The notes below the pieces were generated by a model that was not told the DNA's origin, searched no databases, and saw only the letters and a list, made by a program, of their open reading frames with translations. A stretch of 64,000 bases of DNA from positions 58,702 to 122,701 of the IMG/VR virus record IMGVR_UViG_3300037400_001962, one strand, 5' to 3'. How positions within the stretch are numbered: position 1 is the stretch's first letter; every line of letters begins with the position of its first letter. The translations under genes and the position numbers were made by a program. Of this stretch, positions 10,517 to 60,913 are shown one piece after another. Origin of the DNA: a virus. Taxonomy: Duplodnaviria > Caudoviricetes.

Positions 10517-13500
10517 ATGGCGGGATAGAAATTTACATTAACATTTGATGCTAACTTAAATGTTAGTTAGATGAAAGGTGCCTTAAATTAGATTTAGAGT
10601 TCTCTTAATGGATTACATTTACCACAAAATATGGCAAAAGGGCTGTAGAGTACATTTGCTAATTTAGAAAAAGAGATATAGAATTTTGAAAATTTAACAA
10701 ATAAAGGTATTACTAAAGCTTCTGATATGTCTACACTTGAAAAATCAAGTGAAAAAATATTAAATTTTTATAATTTACTTTAGATTAAAATAAAAGACTT
10801 AGGGAATCTTGCGGGTAAGGATTTAAATAAGTTATTTCCATAGCAAGTAGTTGATTAGATTAATGCTGGACTTAATGCTTTAAAACAATATGAAACAGAA
10901 ATAAAAAATATTCAAGATAAAGTTAATAAATCTAAGAATAATGTTGATACAAGAAAAAATGAATTAGATGTATTATCACGGCAACGTCAATAGATGGAAT
11001 TGACTTTATAGACTCTTAAAAAACAAGAAGAATCTTATCGTAGTTTAGGTAATAAAGCAACCGAAGTTTTAAATAATCTATAGGCTAAAGCCTAGTCTTT
11101 ACAATAGATTATGGCTAATGCTGGAGTACGGAAAAATGTTGCATAGAGTATTAACGATTATTCCGAATTAGAAAAAGCATTAGAACAAGCTCGTTTAAAA
11201 TTAGAATAGTATTATAATAAAGTTCAAAATGGTAGAAAACCTAATCTTTTAACAGAAACTGGTCTTAAAAATAGAGTAGCTGAATTGGAGGCTGCACAAG
11301 CAGCATGGAATAAATAGGCCGCCGCGATTAATTATGCAGAAAATGCTGTGTAGAAATATACTACAAAAGCATAGAGTGCAAGTAGTACTATTAAGACTGT
11401 GACTTCGGATTTGACAAAATTAGAAGGTAAGATTAATACTGCATCAACTAATTTAAAAGTTGCAGAAGCTGCTTTTAAACAAATAAAAATTGCGGCTGGT
11501 ACTGATGCCACTACAGCGATAAATAACTTTTTTAGCACTCTTTAGAAAGCTGGATTTAATATATAGGGTTATGGTAGAACTGTAGATGAAGCAAAGCGTG
11601 CTTTAAAAGATTTTGAAAATGCGTAGAGATAGGCAGCAGTAAATGGTGTTTAGAAAGTATTAGCTGAACTTTAGGCATAGTCTGGCGCTTTACAGAATAA
11701 TAAAAATGATGTAGATAAGTGCACTGAATCATGGAAGCAATATATAAATCATGCTCAAGAAGTTGATGCACTTAAATCTCGTATTCAATATTTCTTTGGT
11801 TTAAATAATGCTATTCAATTAGTAAAGCGTACAATGCGCGAAGCTTACAATACAATTAAAGAGCTTGATAAAGCGATGACTGAGACAGCAGTTGTGACTG
11901 ATTTCTCAGTTGGTGATATGTGGGCATAGCTTCCCGATTATACTAGGCGCGCGAATGAACTTGGAGTTACAACAAAAGCGGCTTATGAAGCTGCAACTCT
12001 TTATTATCAGCAAGGTTTAAAAACTAATGAAGTCATGGCAATGTCTAATGAGACATTAAAGATGGCTCGTATTGCTGGCCTTGATGCTGCTGTTGCGACT
12101 GACCGTATGACAAATGCTATCCGTGGTTTTAATATGGAGATTAATACTACGAATGCATAGCGTATTGATGACGTATATTCAAGATTGGCTGCGATTTCTG
12201 CTTCTAATGTTGATGAAATTTCAACAGCTATGACTAAAGTTGCATCTTTGGCCCATAACGCAAATATGGAATTTGAAACAACAGCGGCTTTCTTAGCATA
12301 GATTATTGAAACTACTCGTGAATCTGCTGAAACTGCTGGTACTGCTTTAAAGACTGTTGTTGCAAGATTCTCAGAAGTTAAGAAGCTCGTAAGCGAAGGA
12401 GAGTTAAGTGGTTCTGATGAAGAAGGAGAACTTATTGATGTTAATAAAGTTTCTTCTGCACTTCGTGTTGCTGGAATTGACTTAAATAAATATTTTTTAG
12501 GCCAAGTTGGGCTTGATGATATATTTATGGAATTGGCTTCTAAATGGAACCAATTAACTACTTTACAACAAAGATATATAGCTACATAGGCTGCTGGTTC
12601 TCGTCAGCAATCTCGTTTTATTGCTTTAATGTCTGACTATGCTCGTACTCAAGAATTAGTTGGCGAAGCATATAAAGCAAATGGTGCATCTGCAAAGTAG
12701 TTTGAAAAAACACAAGAGTCGCTTGAATCAAAACTTGCTCGTTTAAAGAACGCCTGGAATGAATTTGCCATGGGTATTCTTAATAGTGATATTGTTAAAG
12801 CTGGCGTTGATATATTAACTAACTTATTAAATGGTGTTAATGCTTTAACTAGTGGTTTTGGGTCATTAAATTCTGGTGTTGGAAGTTTTATTAATACTTT
12901 TGCTAAACTTGCTTTATTAATAGGTGGATTAAAAGTTGGTAAAGGATTAACTGCTGGTTTGTTTGGTTCTATGCTTTCAGCCGTAACTGGTGGCAAAGTT
13001 GGTGGTGGATTTGCAAATATCGCTGCTGGCGCGATGGGAGTTAATCCGGGAAAAAATCTTTTAACTACTCTTGGTGCAGGAGCTATTAATCCGTTTAAGA
13101 ATATTGCAACTGGTATTGGTGGTAAATTATCTGGTATTGGTTTTAATGCAATAAATGCAAATTATGCAGGTAGTACTGCTTTATCTGGAAAATTAGCCGC
13201 TGGTGTTTTTGGTAAACTTACTGGAGCCGGCATGGCAACTGGTGCGGCGTAGGGTATCGCTGGCGCGGCGAGCTTATTACCAGTAATTGCAGGTATTACT
13301 GCCGCGGCTGGTGTTGCGTATGTGGCAATTAAAAAATTATATGATGCTTCTCCCGCTGGTCAAATTAAAATAGCTGAAAAATATGCAGCATCATTATCAG
13401 AAGTTGCAGATGCGGCGCGCGCAAGTTAGAGAGAATTTGAATCTATTCAAGAAGAATATAATCGTCTTGAAACAAATGTACAATAGGCTACTACTGCGGA

Positions 13501-16500
13501 AGAAAGAATAGAAGCTATTAAGTCTCGTACTGAATATATCTAGTCTTTACTTGAATAGAATTCTGCTTATGCTCAATATATAGATTAGTACGAAGTAAAG
13601 AATGGAGAGATTTATCTTACTTTAGATTCAGATAAGTTAGCTGAAACATGTAAAAAAATAGCTGAAACAGTTTTGAAAGTATAGAGCGGCGCGGATATAG
13701 CCAATGCTAATGTTGCATTTTAGAGGTATTAGGAAGCTCAAAATGATATAGCAAAACTAGAAATTTAGAAAGCTTTAATAGAAGCAGAATAGCCTGCTAA
13801 TTAGACTGAGGCAGAAGAAAAAGAATGGCGAGAATTTTCTGGACTTAATCAAATTGAAACTTCTTTAATCTAGGCTACAAATCGTATGCTTTAGTTTTAG
13901 CAAGAGTATCAAAATTTTGCTACTTCTGGGGCTATTAAAAATATTCAAAATAATAAAAATTTAGATGATGCGGCAAAGAGTGCTATAGCGAATGCTTTGG
14001 GCTATGCTTTTAATGGTGATGAAGTATAGAAAATTCTTGTAGATAATACCACTGATTTATTTGGTCTTATTCCAGATACTGTTTTTCACACATTAGAAGG
14101 CGCAAGAAAGCGTTGGATGGATGCATTTGAAACCACCGATATTCCAGATGATATTTATAATGATGAAAAGAAATTAATAGATGCTGCTGCATAGGAAGAA
14201 GTTAGAAAAACATTAGAAAAATCTAGTGACAAATTAATTGATGCTTATTCGGTTTTAAATGATGAATAGAAAAAGATTTTTATCAATTTAATAAATAATA
14301 ATGGGGAAAATCTTAATCTTACTACAGCTCAAAGTATTTCTAATAATTTACCACGAATTTTAGGAGATTTTTGGAATTTACTTGATAAAGAACTATAGGA
14401 AAAATTAGTTGAAAGTAGTAGTAACTTAAGTCCGATTGAAACTGCTTAGGATATAATATCAAAAACTTTTTTAGAAGGTTCGTCAGAAAATTCAAATCTA
14501 TTTTCTAAAATTTTTGATTTTATTTTTGATTTTAATTTAAGTGGAACGCAAACAGAAGTAATTTCAAAAGTATTTACTGATTTTGCAAAAGATAATTATA
14601 ATTCTTTAGATGATTTTAGTAAATTTATTAGAAATTTAATTGATACAATTTCTAAAACTGGTAATCCAGATGATTTAACTAATTTCTTTGACGCTCTTGC
14701 ATTATTAAAAACAGATAGTGTTTCAAGCATTGATACATTTTTTGGTCTACTTGATGGACTTGGAATTGATTTTAATAGTTTTGGTTATGATCTTAATGAT
14801 GCTGCAGAAGAACTTAAAAAACTGGCGAATGCGGCAAAAGCTTTTGATATTGAAGCTTTAAAAGGGAAAATTACTGATAATGTCTCCTTAATGAGGGATA
14901 TTAAAGATAGAAAATCTACATAGGCTGGATACAGAATTTTTGATGAAAGTGAATATTAGCTTCTACGTGAGGCTGGTGTTGATACTAATAGTTTTGTTTA
15001 CTCTGGCATTAAAAATAAAGAATGGACTTATACTGGTGATGATTTAAACGCTTTAGTTGAGGCTTTAATTTAGAATTTAACTACTGAAATTCAAGAACAA
15101 AGTGTTTAGTTAGACCAAGATATTGCAAAAGGTCAAGTAATTGATAATGCATCAAATGTTAATATAAACGGAGAAGAATTAAGTTTAGCAGATGCTTTAC
15201 AATAGATTGTTTCTAAAGAAATAAATATTGAAGATTATAGAAATGAAGATTGGCTTAAAAATATAATTAATTAGTTATATGGAGAATCTACTTTAAGTCT
15301 TACTCCTGATGCACTTTTAGCAAAAATTAAAGAGGCTCTTGATTATTATCATCAATTAGAAGCTAATACTTAGATAAAGGAAGATATTGGTTAGTATGCT
15401 TCTTAGCCAATGAATTATATTACTCCTATCAATGATTTTAAAAATGAAATAAGTGATGAAGAATATAATACTGCTGTTACTTCAAAATTTTATGTTGATG
15501 AGCACGCGGAAGATAGATATGAAAGTATTCTAAAAAGTATTCAATAGATTGATGCAGCAAATGCCAGCTGGAATAAAACATCTCAATAGCAAGAAACTAT
15601 TTCTCGCGCACTAGCTGTTAATTGGTCAGAAGAAGCATCTAATCTTGCTGAATTAACGGAAGTCCTTGATAAAAATGATAAAATTCTTTACGAGGGTTCT
15701 AAAGATTCATATGAATATAGTGGTGCAATTCATGCGGTCGGTGAAGCGATGCGCGCAGCTTATGGTGAGTAGGTAAGCGATGAATTCGTACAAGCTCATA
15801 TTCAATAGATTATGCTCGCGCGCGAGTCTAAAGAAGCTTATCAAGAATTATTAACACTTTTATAGCAAGATTTCTTTTCTGGCGCTATAGAAGGAGCAGA
15901 AGGTTTAGCTGGCACTTTGTGGAATGTATAGCAAGAAATGTTTAAATGTGCAGAAGCTGGGTATGCACTTGATGGTCTTGAAATAAATGGTGTAGCAGTT
16001 CTTGATGGCACTCCATGGATGAAAATTGTAGAAGAATTAATTAAGGCTGGAGTAGATGTAGCTGCTTTCTTTGATACTCTTGGATGGACTGTTGTATATG
16101 GGCCAAAAGATGAAAATGGTATCCCAACTTCTGCTTAGCTAGTTCGTAATCAACCAACTGGTTATGGTGGCTACCAGCCTTATACCGGTTCTAATTGGGG
16201 TAGAGGCTCTTCTGGCAGTAGCTCTTCTTCTTCAAAAGAAAACGAACCAAGAAAAGAAGAATGGAAATCTGATTTTGATTGGCTGTATAATCTAATGGAG
16301 GATATAGCCGAACTTCAACGTGAGCAAACTAAACTTCAAGAAGAACAAAATAAAATTTTAGAGTCCAATAATAAAGAAGATACTGGCAAAGATCTTTATG
16401 AAAATTTAGTAAAACAAATAGCTAATTTAACTATTCAGAAAGATTATTAGTCTGCTGTTCAAGGTTATCGTCAACGTGAAATGCAAGAGTTTATGGCAGT

Positions 16501-17983
16501 AAATTCTGGATATAGTGAATACTTTAGATTTAATGACCAAGACCAAACTCTTGAAATTGATTGGGATGCAATTAATAATATCGGTGATAAAGAAACTTAC
16601 GAAAAAGTTAAAGATCTAGTATCTGAGGCAGAAGCAATTCAAAAGAAAATGGATGAATCTGATGATGCTGTACGTGATATTGAAGCTTAGATTCGTCAAT
16701 TAGAAAATATTTGGCGTGAGCAATATGTAAGTTTTGAAAAACGAGTTTTAGATGCTTTAGTAAGTTCTTATTAGCGCGTGATTGATAACTATTCTGATTT
16801 AAATGATACTGTAACTAAAAGTAATAATGAAATTCTTGAAGCTCTCTAGTAGGAAATTGCATTAGAAAGATAGATAAGAGATAATACTGAAACAGAAAAT
16901 GCTATCGCTGATGCAGAAGCACGATTAGCATTTCTAAGACGTGATACTACTGGTGGTAATCAAGTTGCTATACTTGGCGCGCAGAAAGAGTTAGATGCAA
17001 GTCGTCAATAGTATGAAGATGCTTTAATAGATCAAGCAATTTCTCGTTTACAAGAAGATAATAATGACGCGGCGGAACAACGTGAAAAATAGATTGAGCT
17101 TATGCAAGCGCAATTAAATTATTCTAAAGAGAACGGGGAATTTAATGACGAGGTATCTGAATTAATTGCTAATGCCTTAGGAGGCAATGGTGAATTACTT
17201 ACTAACTCTGATTTATATGATTTATTGCGGCAAGAAGAGTCTTGGAATGCATTAAGTGACGCAAATAAAGAAATTTGGGAAGATGAATTAAATAATACTT
17301 TTAAAGAAGTTTCAGCGTATCTATTAAAAGAAAAAAGTGAAGCTGACGGTAGCTTTGCTGCGGCGATTTAGAGTTCAATTGAAAATTCTGCTTTTTAGTT
17401 AGGCGAAGCTATAATTGGTAGTGTAAGTTAGGCCATGTCGCATACTAATTATATTTATGATGACAATAGTAATATTGATGCAAATAATAATAATAATTCA
17501 GGATATAATTGGCCTGACGATTCATCTGAGCAAGAGCCAAAGCCAACTTATGGATTATAGACTTATTGGGGTGGTGGTTATACTGTTACTGAAAATAACG
17601 AACCAATTTGGACTGTCCATCAAGGTGGCAGGTATAATGAAGTTTTCGAAGATCTTAAAAAACTTCGTGGTTATAAAACTGGTGGCCTTGCTACAAAAAC
17701 CGGATTGGCATGGCTTGATGGCACGCCTTCTGAGCCAGAATATGTATTAAATGCTCGCCAAACTGATGCTTTCTTAAGATTGGCAGATGTTCTTCCGTCT
17801 ATTTTTGATAAAGGTTCGACAATAGCTAATAATACTAGTAACAATATGTATCTTGACTTTCATGTTAATGTTGAAAATATTAGTGATGATTATGATGTTG
17901 ATCAATTAGTTGAACGTGTAAAAGAAGACATTTATAACGCGGCCAGTTATAGAAATGTAAATGTTGTAAACTTCTTAAGATAA
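10517..17983 (+). CDS. Tail tape measure protein, ~2488 aa (many TAGs read as Gln)
   Basis: Track fragments at 12770, 15938, 16481, 17102 and 17705 are all in frame with ATG 10517. TP901-type TMP core (ELDKAMTETAVV, RESAETAGTALKT) and typical C-terminus (GYKTGGLA..WLDGT..PEYVLN). Spot-checked stretches show only TAG interruptions. Confidence 0.85.
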
Positions 17984-18045: not shown

Positions 18046-18843
18046 ATGAGTGTTTATGATGGGGACTTCCTTGGATTTTAGTTAGGAGATATTCATTCTT
18101 CTCAATTAAATATAACCAGAGTAAGTAATGGAGATAGATATACAGAAAACCTTACTCCAATTTTTAATGATGCAACTGAATAGGTTCCAGGAGCAGACGG
18201 GACATATTATTGGAATACCTACTATACTCAGCGGCCTTTTATTATTGATTTTGCTTTTGATGATCTTCGTGACGAAGATATTCATCGTTTAAAGTAGGTA
18301 TTAAATTTTAAAGGTGTACAACCATTAATCTTTGATGAAGCCTTGTATAAAAAATATTATGTGAAATGTAGTGCTTCGCCAATTTTAAAATATATTAGTT
18401 TTGATGAATAGGGTACTAGGCTTTATAAAGGAGAAGGTAATGCCAATCTTATAGCATATTACCCATATGCAATAAGTACGGCAAATATTAAATTTGAGAA
18501 TGGGACTAATTTTTTATTACCTAATTCGGGAGATATTGAAGCTCCATTGAAAATTTATTATAGATTAAATGATTTAATAAATAATAATTTAAATTTATAT
18601 TTAAATGGAGAGAAGAAATTAACTATTAAAATTAAAAAACAATTAAATAATAATGATATGTATATTTGTATTGATGGTAGAACTCATTTAATTGAAGGAT
18701 TAGATAGTGAATATCAAAAAACTAATACTTTATATAATCGTTATATAATTTCTGGTGATTTCTTTTCTTTACCTGTTGGGAAAAATACTTTTACTACAGA
18801 TCAAACATGCAATAAAATTACATATAATTATTTATACTATTAA
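18046..18843 (+). CDS. Distal tail (Dit)-like protein (TAG read as Gln)
   Basis: AGGAGG, ATG 18046, in frame with track ORF 18547-18843. Follows the TMP; C-terminal GDFFSLPVGKN motif is typical of Dit proteins. Confidence 0.7.
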
Positions 18844-18854
18844 GGGGTGAGTTA

Positions 18855-21800
18855 ATGGATAAATATGAAATAAGTTTGTGGGAAGATTATCCAGATCTTA
18901 CCTCAAATAATATTCCATTTTTAAACGAAGGTAAAATATGTGTTATAGGTTCTGATACAATGACAACCGCAGCCCGCGCCCTAGAACCAAAATTAATATC
19001 AAATGTTAATGGTACACATATCTTTACTTTTAGAATTTATTATAGATATAAAGACGAGATAACTGGCGAAGAAAAAATTAATCCATATCTTCCATATCTT
19101 ATAAATGAAAGAAAAGTTAAAGTCTTGTGGAAAAAGAAATGGTATGATTTAGTAATAAAGAAAATAGAAGAAGATACATAGAAGCGTTCTGTGTTGTGTA
19201 CTTGTGAAGACTTATTTATTACTGAATTAAGTAAGAATGGATATGAACTTGAATTTAATAGTGAATTATAGAATAATAGTGGTACGGCGCAAGAACTAAT
19301 GGGAAAAGTTCTTGATGGTAGTGGATGGCGGCCGGCCGCAGAGCAAGATAGAATAATTCAATACCAAGAAGAACCAGTTTATGAAGTTACTACTATAAAT
19401 AGTTTTATTGCAATTAAATAGTCTCCTTCTGGTTTAGATGAAAATATATCTATACCAAAAGATAAATTATGCTTATTATATTAGTCATGTTTGGATGAAT
19501 CTTGCATTAATATTTAGTTTCTTTATAGTGATGAAGGTTATGCCACAGAAGTTAATGATATGCTTGTACTAAATGGTGATTGTTGTACTTTTGTTGGTAA
19601 AATTGTATATAGTGGTAATTATGCTACTATTACTAATAATTCTGGAACTAAAATATTTGAATTTAATATTAATGATTCATATTCATCTAATTATCGTGCA
19701 AAGCGTTTAGTTAATAGTTAGGTAACTGTTTTTGATGAATTACTTGGACGATATGTTGACGTATACACTGATGGAAATGGAAATGATATTTATGGTTATG
19801 AAACTACCGAATATTCTGATCCAACTTTAGTAGTAAATTTAATTGCTAATTCAAAAGATTTTAAAGACACTAAAGGCTGGATTGGTAATGATATAACTTG
19901 GAAATTAAGTCCATCATTTACTTTAGATAGTTCTGGAAAACCGTATTATAATATTTATAGTAATGATGAATATATCATTGATGACGGCGTTCTTATTGAT
20001 GAAACATTGCCGACTTATGAAGCAAAAAGTTATTTATAGGTATCAAGTGGAAGTATTTATAATACAGCTTTTGTTTCAAATAGAAGTTTTTTAAATCCAA
20101 GTTCTATTGATATAAGAAATGGTAGACTTGGTGGTTTCTAGAAAGATGAAAAGTATATTTTTAGATATAAAGTTAAGAGTCAGTTGACAGGTAGTACGTA
20201 TATGCAATCTGGTATTACTGGTAATGTTTATAAATTCCAGATTAATGCTGGTAATTATGTAAAAACTGGTAATGCTTATTTTTCCTCTTCTGATCCAAGT
20301 TTTAAATCTAATGGTAATTGGGTTGAATATACTTTGACTTGTGTTGAAGCTTGCCCAGCTAACGAACTTGATTAGATTGGGTTTTTTATTGATGTTAATA
20401 ATTCATGTTATATTGAAGAAATTTAGTTTTTTAAATTAGCTTATGGTAAAACTCATTATAAACTTAAAGACACAGATCCAGAGCCAACGGAAGAACGTAT
20501 AAATCCAGGTGAAATTACACTTCAATCTATTGCTAATGTAGTTTATAGATATTATAATCCAGACCATGATGGTGTAAAAGATCCAAAAGATTTGAAATTT
20601 ATATATTAGGGGACAACAAAATCAAATAATTATACTCCTAAATATAATAATTATGAAAAGATTACTTCAATTGAAGTAAGTAAATCTAATAGATTTAATA
20701 TTCTTTAGTCTATTGCAGAAAAGTTTGAATGTTGGGTAAGATTTATTATTAATCATGATGAAGAAACTGGCCAGGTTCGTTATGATGAAGATGGTCTGCC
20801 GCAGAAATATGTGCAGTTAGTTGAATAGATTGGCAACGATACTGGTATTTCATTTGAATATGGAATTGATTTAAAGGGCGTAAAAAGATCTATTATATCA
20901 AATACAATAGCAACTAAAGCAATTATTATTCCTAATGAAAATGAATTTGGTAAACATGGATTCTGTACAATCGCGCGCAGTCAGTTAAATTATTGTAGAG
21001 AGAATTTTATTTTAAATTTTGATTATTATATTTAGCAAGGGCTTTTAGACAAAGATACTATTGAAGCAGATTTATATAAAACTAATAATGGGCATTTAGG
21101 TTATTATTTTTATTTAAATAAATGGAATAAAAGATATGATGCCTTAGCCGATGAAATTAATAATAAACAAACCGAGCTAATTAAACAAAGAGCTGAATAC
21201 AAAGTCCAAGTTGATAATTTGCGCGCGTCTGAAGAAAAATTAACAGATAGTATTTCTGATTTAATTTTATTAGCTGGCGTATCTACTCTAGCGGCCGCGC
21301 AACAATATGCCGTAAATCATGTAACTAATAGAAAAGTTCAATCATTAATGGGAGCTATAGGTAAATTAAGAGTTAGTATTCGTAATTTATCAAATAGTAT
21401 TAATAACTTAAAAAGATCTATTTAGGAATTAGAGAGATTTATTACTGCTACTAATGATGAAATGAATGGTCTTGTTGAAGACATTAATTTATTACATGAA
21501 AAGTTCTTTAGAAAATATTCTCGTTTTATTCAAGAAGGAACTTGGCAAGACTAGAATTATGTTTATGATGATGATTATTATTTAGATGCACTTGAAGTTG
21601 CTTATAGATCATCAAGACCACAAATTCAATATGATATTTCTTTACTGCGGTTGAGCGGTTTAGAAGATTTTAGTTCTAAAGTTTTTGATCTTGGTGATAT
21701 ATGTTATGTTCAAGATAAAGAGTTCTTTGGTTATGAAAAAGATGGAATTACTCCATATAAACAAAGAATTATTATTAGTTAGTTAACTTCTTTCTTTGAT

Positions 21801-24800
21801 ACTCCTGAAAAAGATATAATCAAAGTTCAAAATTATAAGACCCAATTTGATGATTTATTCCAAAGAATTACTACTGCAACTTAGGCACTTCAATTCTCCG
21901 AAGGTAGATTTGAGCGCGCGGCTGGTGTTATAAAACCAGATAAAACTTTAAGTTTTGGTTTATTACAAGACACTTTTGATTATAATAAAGACCTTGTTTT
22001 AAATTCTGCTAATCAATAGGTAACTTGGGATAATACTGGTATTACAGTTTCAGATGAAACTAATAGCGCATTAAAAGTAAAAATTATGGCCGGCGGCGTT
22101 TTTGCTAGTAGTGATGGCGGTTAGACTTGGAAGAATGCTTTGCGCGGCGATGGTATCAGTACTGATTTATTGACGGCTGGCCGCATAAATACAAGTGAGA
22201 TTTATATGTATGATGGAGATCATCCAAGCTTTAGATGGGACAGCCAAGGTATTAATGCTTATACTGAAAATTCAATTCCTTAGATAGATTCTAATGGTAA
22301 TATTAAAATAATAAATGGAGAAATCCAATATAATAAATACCCATTTAGTAAATACGTAAGATTTGATTAGTTTGGCCTTTATGGATATGCTGGGACAGAA
22401 GATTTTGTGCCAGAGAAAGAGGATGAAATTTGGAAAGCACCAGATACTAGATTTGGATTGACATGGAAAGGATTTTTCTTCCGCGGTGAATCTGATTCAG
22501 CTAGTTTGTAGATAATTAATGAGTCAGATATATATGGTAATGATTAGATTACTTTTAAAATGGGTAGTTCTGATTACGTTACGGCAGATGGGCAAACAAT
22601 AGCGTCTTCTATTGAAATCTCTACTGATAATGATATAATATTAAAAACTGGAGATATTAATCGAGTTCAAATTGGTAGATATAGATATCAAAGAGTTGAT
22701 GAAAATGGAATCCCACAATATTATATTGATTCAGATGAACCAATAATAGATACTGACTACGGTATTTTTGTCCGTGACAGCGAAGGTAATGATATTTTTA
22801 CTGTAAGTGCTGGTGGAGTGGATAGTATTGGTGGTTGGAATTTAACTGCGGATTCTTTTTATCATAGTGTAAATAAGTAGGGTACTGAAGATAAGTGGGG
22901 TACTGTTGGGTTTTATTCAAAAGGAAAACTATGGACTATTGATGGACCGGAGGAAACTAATCCAATTTATGATGCTACACATTAGGATAGTGGCCAAACT
23001 TAGCCAGATTAGCCAGATTAGCCAGTTGATGATGGTGATGAAATATAGTTAATTGATGAAGTAATTGGATCAGAGAATATAGATACTTCAGATGAGGTAG
23101 AAAAAGTACAGGGCCATAGAGATATATATTATATACTTGCTGGTAATAAATTTGGTGTAACACTTGATGGTAGAGTTTATTCTGCCGGCGGCCGCATTGG
23201 TGGTTGGGAAATTGGAGAGAATACTTTAACTGCTACTACGGAAAAGGGAGAAAGTATTACAATTGATTCATCTGGTAAGATTTATTCTACAATTACATAC
23301 GATGATAATGATCCAAATAAAATAGTTTCTGGATGGGAAATTAGAGCAGACGGAACGGCTAATTTTTATAATGTTATTGCTACTATTGGTGAAATTGCTG
23401 GCTGGCATATAACTAAAGATAGTATTACTAATGGAGAGACTACTCTTAGTTCTGCTACTGCTGCTCAATGGGCAGATGGTCATTATGATATTGTAACAAG
23501 TTCTATTGCAGCATATGGTGGTTATATTGGTGGATGTAAAATAACTGAAAATGGAATCCGTGGTGATGGCTGGTCATTAAGTGCCTCTGGCGGTTCTATT
23601 GGTGGATGGAATATAGCTAATGGTTATATATATTCATAGCCTTAGGGTGGATATTAGACTCTATTAAGTTCAAACGGCTTTTTACAATTTACAGATGGAG
23701 ATAATATAACAACAATATCTGAAAATAAGGGTGGCGGAGTCAGCATTGATCCTGATTTATATGTAACTAATGTTATATCTGCTGGTGGACAAATAAGATC
23801 AAATACTTCTTTATCAGCTCCTCAAATTACTTTTACTTCTTCTACTCCTTCTCAAGAAGGTACAGCGACAGTTACTTTGACACTAGTAGATGCAGATAAT
23901 ATTAAAAAATTAAATCATACAGTTGAAGGAGAAATAAATAATGATACTCATATTGAGTATTTAGAATGGTTACATAAAAATTGGAAACATATAACTCCTT
24001 CAGACGTTGGACTATAAGTTTAGATGTCTATAAACTTCTCTAATTGCTGGAAACTCCTAAAACTTATTTACTACAACGTAGGAGGTAACTCCAAGCGTGA
24101 ATGTTTAAAAAATAATAAGATATATGGACAATCAGCAGCGAAGCGGCCCGCTGTGTGGTCGAACGTTCAACGACTAGTCGAAAGACGTAGGCCCAAGCGG
24201 GCCGAAATGAGAAGCTCCAGAAATGGATGAAGATATAGTCTCATCTCATATGAAAGTATGAGCAGTTCATAAGAGAACGCGTATAGAATAGCAACCTATA
24301 CGGAAGGTAATGTAGGGGAATAATATTAATCTCAGTAATCTTACATTTGAACCACAGACAATAACTGGACCAACTCAAACTACACATATATCATTTACAA
24401 AGACTAATAATAAAGTTTATGCAAATGGAAAAACTGTTGAAGGCATACTAAATATTAGTGCTAATGGAAAAACAATAACAAAAAATATTAGTATGAGTGC
24501 TGTAGATGTTTATGACAAAGGTTGGGATGATGGTTTAACTAGTGCAACAGTTAGTGGTTTAGGAGTAACAAAAAAAGATGGAGCTAACCCACAATATTAT
24601 AATGTCACTACCGGTGGTGTTAAACGTTGGCTTATACCGGTTACTATTTATGGTCGTGTAACTGGGAAAAAAGCAGATAATACAAATTATCAATCTGAAT
24701 ATTATTATGGTTCCGACACGACCACATTAGATTTTACTACTATTTATAATGATATAATTGAAAACAGTGGTAGTTCACGTACAATTACTAATTTAAGTTG

Positions 24801-26574
24801 GGCTGGTAATGATTATACAAAAGTAAATGCTTCTTTTGATAAAGGAGATCTATAGAATAATATTGACTTACCAATGGTTGGTGATAAAACATTATATTCG
24901 TATGCTTATGGTTTAGGTGCAAATGACGCGAAAGCAAATCATATTACATGGACTCCTATAACTCCCGCTTCTTATAGCAATATTATTGCTACACACGGCG
25001 ATGTACAAACATATGGAAATAGCAATAATAAATACATACAAGTTCAATTTACTCTTACTGCTGATCATCTAAATAGCAATAATGAATCAACTTATCCGTA
25101 TACCATACCTAACGATGACATTGCTCCCGCTACATTTAATATAGACGTTACTGATTTGGTAAGCAGCGGCAGCGGCGATATATCCACTCTGTCTATTGTA
25201 AGCACGGGCAATTTTACCGGGGACGTTCTCGTTTCTCGCGTAGATTCCAATTATTCGGGTTATAACACCAACTCCATCACAACCGATGCGAGCATCAAGG
25301 TGAACGGCACGGCGGTTTCAGGGATGATCCCGATCGACATAACGGGTATCACGAATCAGCTCCGATTGTACAGATACAGTCAGGGAATCAATACCGGTAA
25401 AACCGATACGAACAGCGGGTATGACAGTAAAACGGGTAACTTGTATCTCAGCACAAACTATGAATTGAGATTAGGGACCAAAACAATCATAGACTGGAGA
25501 GATAAATCGTCCAATAACTATGTGAACATTTCCAACTATGTAAGCGGCAGTAGTGGAATTGATATTAATGACGTAAGGCTTTCTATAACGCAAGCGTCTA
25601 ATGCATCTGATTCTTATAATACGGGTGTTACTATGACTGCCGAGTATTTGACCTATGATTCTACTAACGATAGACTCATAGGTTATGCAAATGCTTTTCT
25701 TGACACTGGAACAAACACTGAGCAAGCCAGCAAGCGCGTAAAAATTATCATGAGTGCGTCTAAAAAACCGAGCAGCGGAAGCGCAAGTCATTCAATTACT
25801 AAAGCAACCGGCAACGATTGGACAAATACTACAAAACAATATAACTTTACCGTCAATAATACTGATGCTGGAAGTGTTCGTTTGTATGTGGATGGCAACG
25901 CTATAATGGGCGCGTACGCAAATAGCCAAAACGAATTGTACTCATACGAAACACTGTTTACTATCAGCAGTGGGAGCGTAGGGCAATGGCGATACAACAT
26001 TATGGATAAATCATACGCCGACCCTTTCCTGGTGTGGACTGATGAGGACCCACCTGGAACATTAGACTTCGGATCTAATGTAGACTATATTGATAACAGT
26101 TATCTTCGCGGTATTGTAAGAATACACCACGGATCATATGAACAAAAATATATCGTAAAGATGAATACAGATAGTGTAACGACAGGTGGAGATACGCCGA
26201 GCGGTGGTTCTTACACAAGGACTGGTCAAAACTTCTATGTAGATGAACAATCTTATGACTATGGTTATGATTATAACCGCTCAAACAGTAAAGTAGCTAT
26301 TACTGGTTACGTCGAGGTTGATGGACATAAGGTCTGGGTAAATTCATTTGACATTGGTGTAGGAAGTATTTGGTATGATGGCTATCAAACTGGCGGCGGT
26401 GGAAGCAGTGAAGGAGTAACTATTATTGATGCAAACGGTAACGAGCGAACTTATTATGGCGGTACAGTATATTTAAGTGAAATCGTAAAATCTTCAACGC
26501 AATATGGTACGACATATGCTTACCAATGGGGTGCTAATGGCGAAACACCATACGTTGTAAGCAGATACGCTTAA
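18855..26574 (+). CDS. Large tail tip / Tal-like plus receptor-binding protein, ~2470 aa; exons 18855-24008 and 24313-26574 (TAG read as Gln, group I intron)
   Basis: Track fragments at 18855, 20184, 21219 and 22560 share a frame. Fragments at 24493 and 24874 share a second frame offset by +1, which a 304 nt intron corrects exactly. Tail endopeptidase-like N-terminal half; GRIGGWEI/SIGGWNI repeats. Confidence 0.75.
23001..23027 (+). repeat. In-frame tandem repeat TAGCCAGAT x~3 (QPD QPD QPV)
   Basis: tagccagat tagccagat tagccagtt in the reading frame of the tail tip gene. Confidence 0.85.
24009..24312 (+). ncRNA. ORF-less group I self-splicing intron in the tail tip gene
   Basis: Core motifs AATTGCTGGAAACTCC, GGACAATCAGCAGCGAAGC, GTTCAACGACTAG and GAAGATATAGTCT in order. 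P1 GACGUU/GAUGUC with a U.G pair at 24008, terminal G at 24312, and removal restores the frame. Confidence 0.85.
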
Positions 26575-26644: not shown

Positions 26645-26676
26645 AAAAACACAGAGCATAAGCTCTGTGTTTTTTA
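26645..26676. terminator. Bidirectional terminator between the convergent late (+) and early (-) arms
   Basis: AAAAACACAGAGC-ataa-GCTCTGTGTTTTT. Confidence 0.8.
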
Positions 26677-60855: not shown

Positions 60856-60913
60856 AATAAATATCTCCTTTTATATTTATTTATAAACGTGTTCCTATCC
60901 ACGTTTATAAGTT

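Follow-up and report, generated by a model that had tools for sequence, protein, structure and literature searches.

A 64,000-nucleotide (nt) stretch of phage DNA, hereafter the window, was analyzed with regard to a tail-tip gene of the Tal type. The window makes up the final 64 kb of a virus record (IMGVR_UViG_3300037400_001962) that is 122,701 bp long and has direct terminal repeats. We conclude, with a probability of roughly 0.85, that this is one Tal gene of a siphovirus in which TAG is recoded to glutamine (Gln), and that it is split by a group I intron lacking an open reading frame (ORF-less) and sharing the P7.1/P7.2 architecture with phage subgroup IA. The late transcript would then comprise exon 1, the intron, exon 2 and a terminator at 26645–26674. 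Pairing of GACGUU with GAUGUC in P1 would set the 5′ splice site after U24008, and G24312 would act as the 3′-terminal G of the intron. Exon ligation would create GAC GTT^TAG GGG (^ marks the splice site) within the predicted spliced sequence ...CCTTCAGACGTT^TAGGGGAATAAT..., encoding ...PSDV^QGNNIN... and a Tal protein of 2471 amino acids (aa; 1718 + 753), and unspliced RNA would yield only Tal residues 1–1718 followed by Gly-Leu. The features on which this reading is built are as follows.

18855–24008, + strand: Tal exon 1, 1718 codons with 33 in-frame TAG, ending in the conserved motif YLEWLHKNWKHITPSDV
24009–24312, + strand: ORF-less group I intron, 304 nt, bounded by U24008^G24009 and G24312^T24313, with G24312 as omega-G
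24313–26574, + strand: Tal exon 2, 753 codons plus TAA, first codon TAG (Gln), 2 TAG, 38.2% GC
24015–24017, + strand: in-frame TAA; unspliced RNA reads GGA CTA TAA and stops two codons into the intron (...DV-GL-stop)
24002–24029, + strand: P1 hairpin, exon AGACGUU (24002–24008) with internal guide GAUGUCU (24023–24029), 7 pairs including U24008.G24023
24035-40/24209-14, + strand: P3, as in the written-out structure
24172-76/24236-40, + strand: P7, pseudoknotted with P3

Detection, boundaries and fold of the intron

The intron was detected by its match to the Rfam group I intron model RF00028, which covers 23949–24262 at 90 bits vs. a cut-off of 50 (E 1e-21) and is the sole RF00028 match in the window. 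Rfam's placement of P1/P2 at 23953–23990 was rejected, as it lies inside the exon and is not conserved in relatives; the true intron ends were taken from the sequence itself and from three homologous copies, and not from the Rfam model. Exon 1 ends with ...CCT TCA GAC GTT (U24008) and exon 2 starts with TAG GGG AAT (24313). A 68-aa ORF inside the intron (24024–24230) is broken in the other copies by 1-, 2- and 7-nt indels, and the intron is therefore considered to carry no endonuclease gene. A blastn search for paralogous introns elsewhere in the same genome found none.

A structure running from P1 to P10 and comprising 84 pairs was drawn by hand on an alignment (A2) of the four copies. In this alignment of only four sequences, 97.9% of the cells are paired and compensatory changes occur in 11 pairs; neither value was reached in any of 500 shuffles, and slid controls paired at 34–45%. 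The P1 helix is invariant across the four copies. Apart from P1, P3 and P7, the structure contains P4–P6a, P7.1 (GUC GAAA GAC), P7.2 (GGCCC AAGC GGGCC), P8, P9, P9.1 and P9.2. Covariation was observed in P7.2 (GGCCC/GGGCC in the window vs. GCAUU/GAUGC in L001, one of the related contigs) and in P8, which is UCCA/UGGA, CCCA/UGGG or CCUA/UAGG among the copies. Extra helices returned by RNAalifold (2–4/312–314 and 236–251) were dropped, as they conflict with P7.

The helix order P7-P7.1-P7.2-P3′, together with the R (GUUCAACGACUA) and S (AAGAUAUAGUC) elements, follows the pattern of phage subgroup IA. Judging from its general features and from blastn similarity of the core, the intron presumably resembles the phage subgroup IA2 introns (T4 td, nrdB and nrdD; Twort; SPO1), with which it shares this helix order, both conserved elements and an early in-frame stop. 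In contrast to these introns, it lies in a structural gene, has no endonuclease ORF and has no P2 helix, for which the 5 nt between P1 and P3 leave no room.

A first-pass annotation of this DNA, made from its letters, had proposed an ORF-less group I core in a Tal-like gene, a P1 with U24008.G and an unspliced stop at TAA 24015, and had suggested a covariance-model scan. The RF00028 match above threshold, the disrupted internal ORF, the seven P1 pairs and the in-frame TAA are all in agreement with these proposals. Its P10, between UUUA (24019–24022) and UAGG (24313–24316), is a possible pairing but a weak one, since G.U accounts for two of its four pairs, and the copies do not conserve it. The span of the intron, which had been drawn to 24315, has to be shortened, since it includes the first codon of exon 2 and the intron ends at 24312; an in-frame G24315 does exist and is considered below.

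Related introns and intron-less homologues at the splice site

The same intron occurs at this codon in three further phage contigs from metagenomes, namely L001/L146 (294 nt), L003/L147 (306 nt) and L034 (300 nt), with RF00028 scores of 84.7 and 80.5 bits recorded for the relatives' introns. All four introns end in ...ATG^ directly before exon 2, whose first codon in the other three copies is TAT, AAA and TAT. The ending GL-stop is also present in L001 and L034, and the database proteins P0003 and P0010 have the C-terminus ...DVGL, corresponding to read-through into the intron.

Further searches were made for additional copies. A 20-mer from the 5′ end of the intron matched 2 IMG/VR contigs. 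A 17-mer scan of one metagenome gave 33 matches, three of them with the intron (the new L034 plus two on contigs already known), and the remaining 30 look like chance. Chance matches only were returned by a P5 pattern scan of IMG/VR and of GTDB genomes. The core of the intron belongs to a very large phage family; it matches 599 INPHARED phage records and, searched as a 19-mer, more than 100 IMG/VR contigs, which represent unrelated phage introns. Full-length similarity is confined to the three Tal copies. A related group I core was also noticed in the crAss-like phage cr118_1 (MT774379.1; L041:2588-4414), where the major capsid protein is annotated as two coding sequences and the core lies in the 477-nt gap between them; this gap probably represents an intron missed in the annotation.

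With the C-terminal third of exon 1 as query, 22 homologues were retrieved. In 12 intron-less relatives (P0004, P0005, P0007, P0008, P0009, P0011, P0012, P0014, P0015, P0016, P0018 and the IMG/VR locus L159), the site is read straight through, with the consensus YLxWLxxNWxxxTPx(Q/E/T)V^R(A/V/T/E)(E/A/G)G.... The intron sits immediately behind the final residue of the protein's last conserved motif (YLxWLxxNWxxxTPxDV), in which W1705, T1714, P1715 and V1718 are invariant in a 14-sequence alignment. A variable C-terminal module follows, with exon 2 lengths of 42, 51, 86 and 753 aa. In the three relatives, exon 2 aligns with intron-less homologues across the junction: V^KAEGITVGQNNVINGATG of L034 (V^KAEG..NNVINGATG) with V^RAEGRNQVINGATG of P0008, V^YTSGANSV of L001 with V^RTGGANSV of P0012, and V^YEQGRTQGQQESQV of L147 with V^REEGKQQGRNQV of P0014. 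The L001 protein continues as ...YDPDGDVDGVRA...GWFWI-stop, like the C-termini of P0004 and P0007. Protein homology thus confirms the predicted ATG^ 3′ splice site in L001, L034 and L147. Because all four homologous introns end in ATG^, the 3′ site of the window is placed at G24312, and the junction GAC GTT^TAG GGG (PSDV-QGNNIN), which had also been proposed in the first-pass annotation, corresponds to the homologous site fixed by exon colinearity in the relatives. The Tal homologue P0006, whose C-terminus (...TTPQEV-YNSLP) lies five residues past the conserved Val, may continue into another kind of intron at this position.

The codons flanking the site differ with the presence of the intron. 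All five intron-bearing alleles encode Asp-Val (GAC GTT, the P1 partner) at the site and none has Arg at +1, in contrast with the 12 intron-less alleles, all of which carry Arg at +1, preceded at −2 by Gln, Glu or Thr. Such a linkage fits either a constraint imposed by P1 or co-conversion of the flanks at homing.

A conserved intron between variable flanks

Among the four phages, the intron forms a conserved island between flanks that do not align. The intron is 80–89% identical among the four loci, vs. 41–52% for the last 300 nt of exon 1, and the exon 2 sequences are unrelated; of the 12 exon bases immediately upstream of the splice site, 9–12 are identical. A comparison of L147 and L034 gave the same picture, with identities of ~94% over 2 kb, 42–54% in the last ~250 nt of exon 1, 92–98% in the intron, 36–41% in exon 2 and 83% downstream. 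The loci compared were L147:12600-13400 and L034:900-1800 (− strand), from phages at least 90% identical over 2 kb.

Exon 2 of the window also stands apart from exon 1 in composition. TAG accounts for 2 of its 22 Gln codons (9%) vs. 33 of 77 (43%) in exon 1 (Fisher p = 0.0045), and its GC content is 38.2% vs. 31.0%. By these measures it looks like a recently acquired module, far longer than the 42, 51 and 86 aa of the relatives, and the distal third of Tal would thus be a swapped-in, TAG-poor and GC-richer module. For the designation of exon 2 as a "receptor-binding half" in the first-pass annotation, the support comes only from its position and from domains common to other tail proteins; the 753-aa distal part probably determines host range.

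These data are open to an interpretation that goes further, in which the intron would be a homology anchor for exchanging distal host-range modules and/or incomplete or timed splicing would produce virions with a short (1–1718 + GL) and a long (2471 aa) Tal. We regard this as unlikely. The conserved intron between divergent flanks, both among the four phages and in the L147/L034 profile, the range of exon 2 lengths and the foreign look of the window's exon 2 speak for an anchor. However, the C-termini of intron-less alleles are equally variable, so that the intron is not needed for variability; no two phages were found that share exon 2 but differ in their exon 1 tails; and informative sites inside the intron (6 vs. 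2 vs. 0) show no clear mosaic. With regard to isoforms, a separate short form seems pointless where exon 2 encodes 42–86 aa, and an early in-frame stop is normal for phage group I introns. There is a similarly small chance that the intron serves as a frame-independent homology block of ~300 bp for natural exon shuffling, with isoforms possibly arising and the junction TAG tolerated for the sake of a better P10.

For the split Tal gene favored here, the conserved intron island, the link to flanking codons and the foreign-looking exon 2 fit together with mobility. They fit a mobile, or recently mobile, intron lineage that would be specialized on the DNA encoding the invariant ...TPxDV motif and spread among related phages.

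Alternative 3′ splice site and the status of exon 2

The same intron might be spliced after G24315 instead, which would remove the TAG and give ...DV^GNNIN.... We give this site a slim chance. G24315 is in frame, but GGGA could not pair with UUUA to form P10, and the homologous introns, which end in ATG^, have no G at +3 and have a site backed by protein homology in L001, L034 and L147. In addition, the QG at the start of the window's exon 2 matches the EG, QG or SG found at positions 3–4 of the relatives.

A still slimmer one is left to a dead intron and a split gene, in which Tal would end in ...DVGL and the 753-aa ORF would be a separate fibre protein starting at ATG 24310, or would remain unexpressed. 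This reading is favored by the in-frame ATG (24310–24312), which directly precedes exon 2 in all copies, by the foreign composition of exon 2, and by the lack of a homologue bridging the junction for the window's exon 2. It conflicts with the compensatory changes by which the core and the peripheral helices have been kept, and with the situation in the relatives, where the 42–86-aa exon 2 corresponds to the conserved C-terminal end of contiguous homologues and could not be an independent gene. Independent translation of the downstream ORF had been named in the first-pass annotation as an outcome that would speak against it. An independent start at ATG 24310 was rejected because of its wrong Shine-Dalgarno spacing, as GGAAGG lies just 2 nt upstream and adjoins P9.2, whereas real genes here have GGAGG or AGGAG 6–9 nt before ATG. 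Starts at ATG 24493 and ATG 24874 were rejected as well, as they have no Shine-Dalgarno sequence, and no promoter or + strand terminator was found between the exons. With the in-frame TAA at 24015 and no usable start signals of exon 2, the distal 753 aa would depend on splicing, as had been proposed.

The relatives of exon 2 itself were also analyzed. An exhaustive profile-free search found 8 relatives, in which the matching domains are internal or C-terminal in long proteins; P0026 (1974 aa, phrog_6211) carries exon-2 residues 492–753 as its own C-terminus. Among the relatives found, no stand-alone protein starts like exon 2. An IMG/VR scan returned no exon 2 relatives, a 21-mer from the start of exon 2 gave no match, and no family in Pfam or PHROGs matched the frame 24310–26574 (754 aa, from ATG).

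TAG recoding of the tail genes and the junction codon

On the + strand between 10.5 and 26.6 kb, table 11 gives short ORFs, and four long frames appear once TAG is read as an amino acid. Besides the two Tal exons, the following features lie in or next to this region.

10517–17983, + strand: tape measure protein (TMP) gene, 2488 aa with TAG as Gln, 79 in-frame TAG, PF10145 at 83.7 bits and several TMP PHROGs
18046–18843, + strand: distal tail protein (Dit) gene, 265 aa, 4 in-frame TAG, phrog_33 and PF05709
26645–26674, no strand assigned: terminator-like hairpin, bidirectional, 3′ of exon 2

The frame 18855–24017 (1720 aa) matches PF06605 (Prophage_tail) at 38.1 bits vs. a cut-off of 31.3, as well as phrog_6211 (minor tail protein). 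Because PF06605 scores above its cut-off and the TMP and Dit genes lie immediately upstream, we assign the host gene, from these sequence matches, to the Tal-type tail-tip genes of long-tailed phages (siphoviruses). A sequence search of the PDB with the Tal profile found no relative.

TAG makes up 79 of 160 Gln codons in the TMP gene, 4 of 10 in the Dit gene and 33 of 77 in Tal exon 1. At the positions of exon 1 TAG codons, homologues have Gln in 197 of 489 residues (40%) vs. a background of 4%, with several columns being invariant Gln, although the homologues in this alignment may themselves be recoded. By codon usage and alignment, the late genes of this phage use TAG generally as a Gln codon. 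Recoding of TAG to Gln in late genes is known from gut phages (bioRxiv 10.1101/2021.08.26.457843).

The junction TAG has to be read against this background. Since TAG is a sense codon here, UAGG is usable at the junction, where it would give the strongest P10 of the four copies (four pairs). The TAG may stand there because UAGG is the best P10 partner that does not introduce a stop, the ideal partner UAAA being an in-frame TAA. The first-pass annotation had instead described a two-step lock, in which the junction TAG would be a dedicated second gate so that splicing and amber suppression are both required; the position of this TAG, the first codon of exon 2 and one of just two in it, speaks for this, but TAG is already decoded 33 times upstream in the same frame and 79 times in the TMP gene, and thus adds no gate at the junction, it aligns with Gln in homologues, and the other three copies open exon 2 with TAT, AAA and TAT, which leaves such a lock with next to no probability.

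Several points weigh against the interpretation of one intron-split, TAG-recoded Tal gene. The analysis shows the fold, the boundaries, the colinearity with intron-less homologues and the general use of TAG; splicing, its efficiency and the mobility of the intron are predictions from sequence. The window, unlike its three relatives, has no intron-less homologue aligned across the junction, and the choice of 24312 over 24315 consequently rests on intron homology and P10. The foreign composition of exon 2 would also suit a separately acquired gene. The subgroup assignment is not clean, given the missing P2 helix. Lastly, neither ARAGORN (default, introns allowed, relaxed scoring) nor a stem-loop scan detected a tRNA(CUA) in the 122.7 kb of the genome. 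A suppressor tRNA was, however, detectable in only 40% of TAG-recoded genomes (Borges et al., bioRxiv 10.1101/2021.08.26.457843), and as it was undetectable in the other 60%, its absence is no strict bar to membership in the recoded class.

Comparison with known phage introns

ORF-less group I introns have been published in minor tail, tape-measure, tail tube and capsid genes (PMC3706429, PMC2504315). The closest parallel is provided by the Cluster J mycobacteriophages BAKA and Optimus, which carry a 265 bp group I intron in a minor tail protein gene, verified by reverse transcription PCR (RT-PCR; Pope et al. 2013, PMC3706429). As in the window, that intron is small, has no homing endonuclease gene, lies in a minor tail gene of a siphovirus (~110 kb there, a 123-kb phage here), follows an exon 1 ending in U, ends in G itself, and occurs in only some of the relatives. 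In contrast, splicing was verified there by RT-PCR and is predicted here from sequence; the host in that case also has a high GC content and the standard code, and the two introns are unrelated in sequence. The BAKA/Optimus intron was not reported at a boundary between conserved and variable modules, whereas the one described here lies at such a boundary (PMC3706429).

Prophages of the Bacillus cereus group harbor the group I introns TMP-IVS1/2/3 and a tail tube intron, of types IA1/IA2 and mostly without homing endonuclease genes (Tourasse and Kolsto 2008, PMC2504315). They share with the intron described here the location in tail structural genes, the occurrence of homologous introns at the same site in different phages and the conservation of P1 and its internal guide sequence, but theirs lie in tape measure and tail tube genes with the standard code and conserved flanking exons, and ours in Tal. 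The spread of such "immobile" introns between phages was called puzzling by these authors, whose similarity table also lists intron matches in the major head protein gene of Tuc2009 and the TMP gene of JCL1032 (PMC2504315). Like the gut phages of Borges et al., the phage described here has its in-frame TAG concentrated in structural and late genes, a replication arm in the standard code and no detected suppressor tRNA. That study describes no intron in a recoded tail gene, its sole remark on introns concerning a recoded endonuclease ORF in an early-gene intron (bioRxiv 10.1101/2021.08.26.457843).

Phage tail genes with ORF-less group I introns have thus already been documented, and no new regulatory principle emerges here. 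The first-pass annotation had considered the location unusual, and this was right only in part: by following an invariant protein motif, the intron occupies a conserved target of the typical kind, and ORF-less introns of tail genes have been published. What is added is a further tail gene that carries a group I intron with no endonuclease, in a stop-codon-recoded phage and at the single conserved motif within a hypervariable region. On the practical side, gene callers terminate Tal after ...DVGL, the 753-aa distal part is lost or mislabeled, and truncated entries are already public (P0003 and P0010). The conserved island between unalignable flanks and its strict link to GAC GTT form a small natural data set on the spread of ORF-less introns and on possible module exchange. 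If the intron were indeed a crossover point for module exchange, this would amount to natural exon shuffling of host-range modules between related phages.

Other observations in the window and the record

A weak match to the cow-rumen-4 RNA (RF02948) was found at 60858–60910 of the window (− strand), with 36.4 bits, under the gathering score of 48.5. Ten ordinary tRNAs are clustered at 20–34 kb of the genome. Outside the window, a GC-rich block of ~500 nt stands in the AT-rich genome (G000:C1:20427-20939) and ends in a tRNA-like T-arm plus ACCA; ARAGORN -i reads it as a tRNA-Pro(UGG) with a 416-nt intron, and it has no RF00028 match. Also outside the window, ARAGORN with introns allowed recovered a tRNA-Leu(UAA) whose anticodon loop is split by a 717-nt intron (G000:C1:30494-31292; L038). 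This intron holds an HNH-type ORF (HHKDGDRTNN...CPNCH) flanked by sub-threshold RF00028 matches of 29 and 24 bits.

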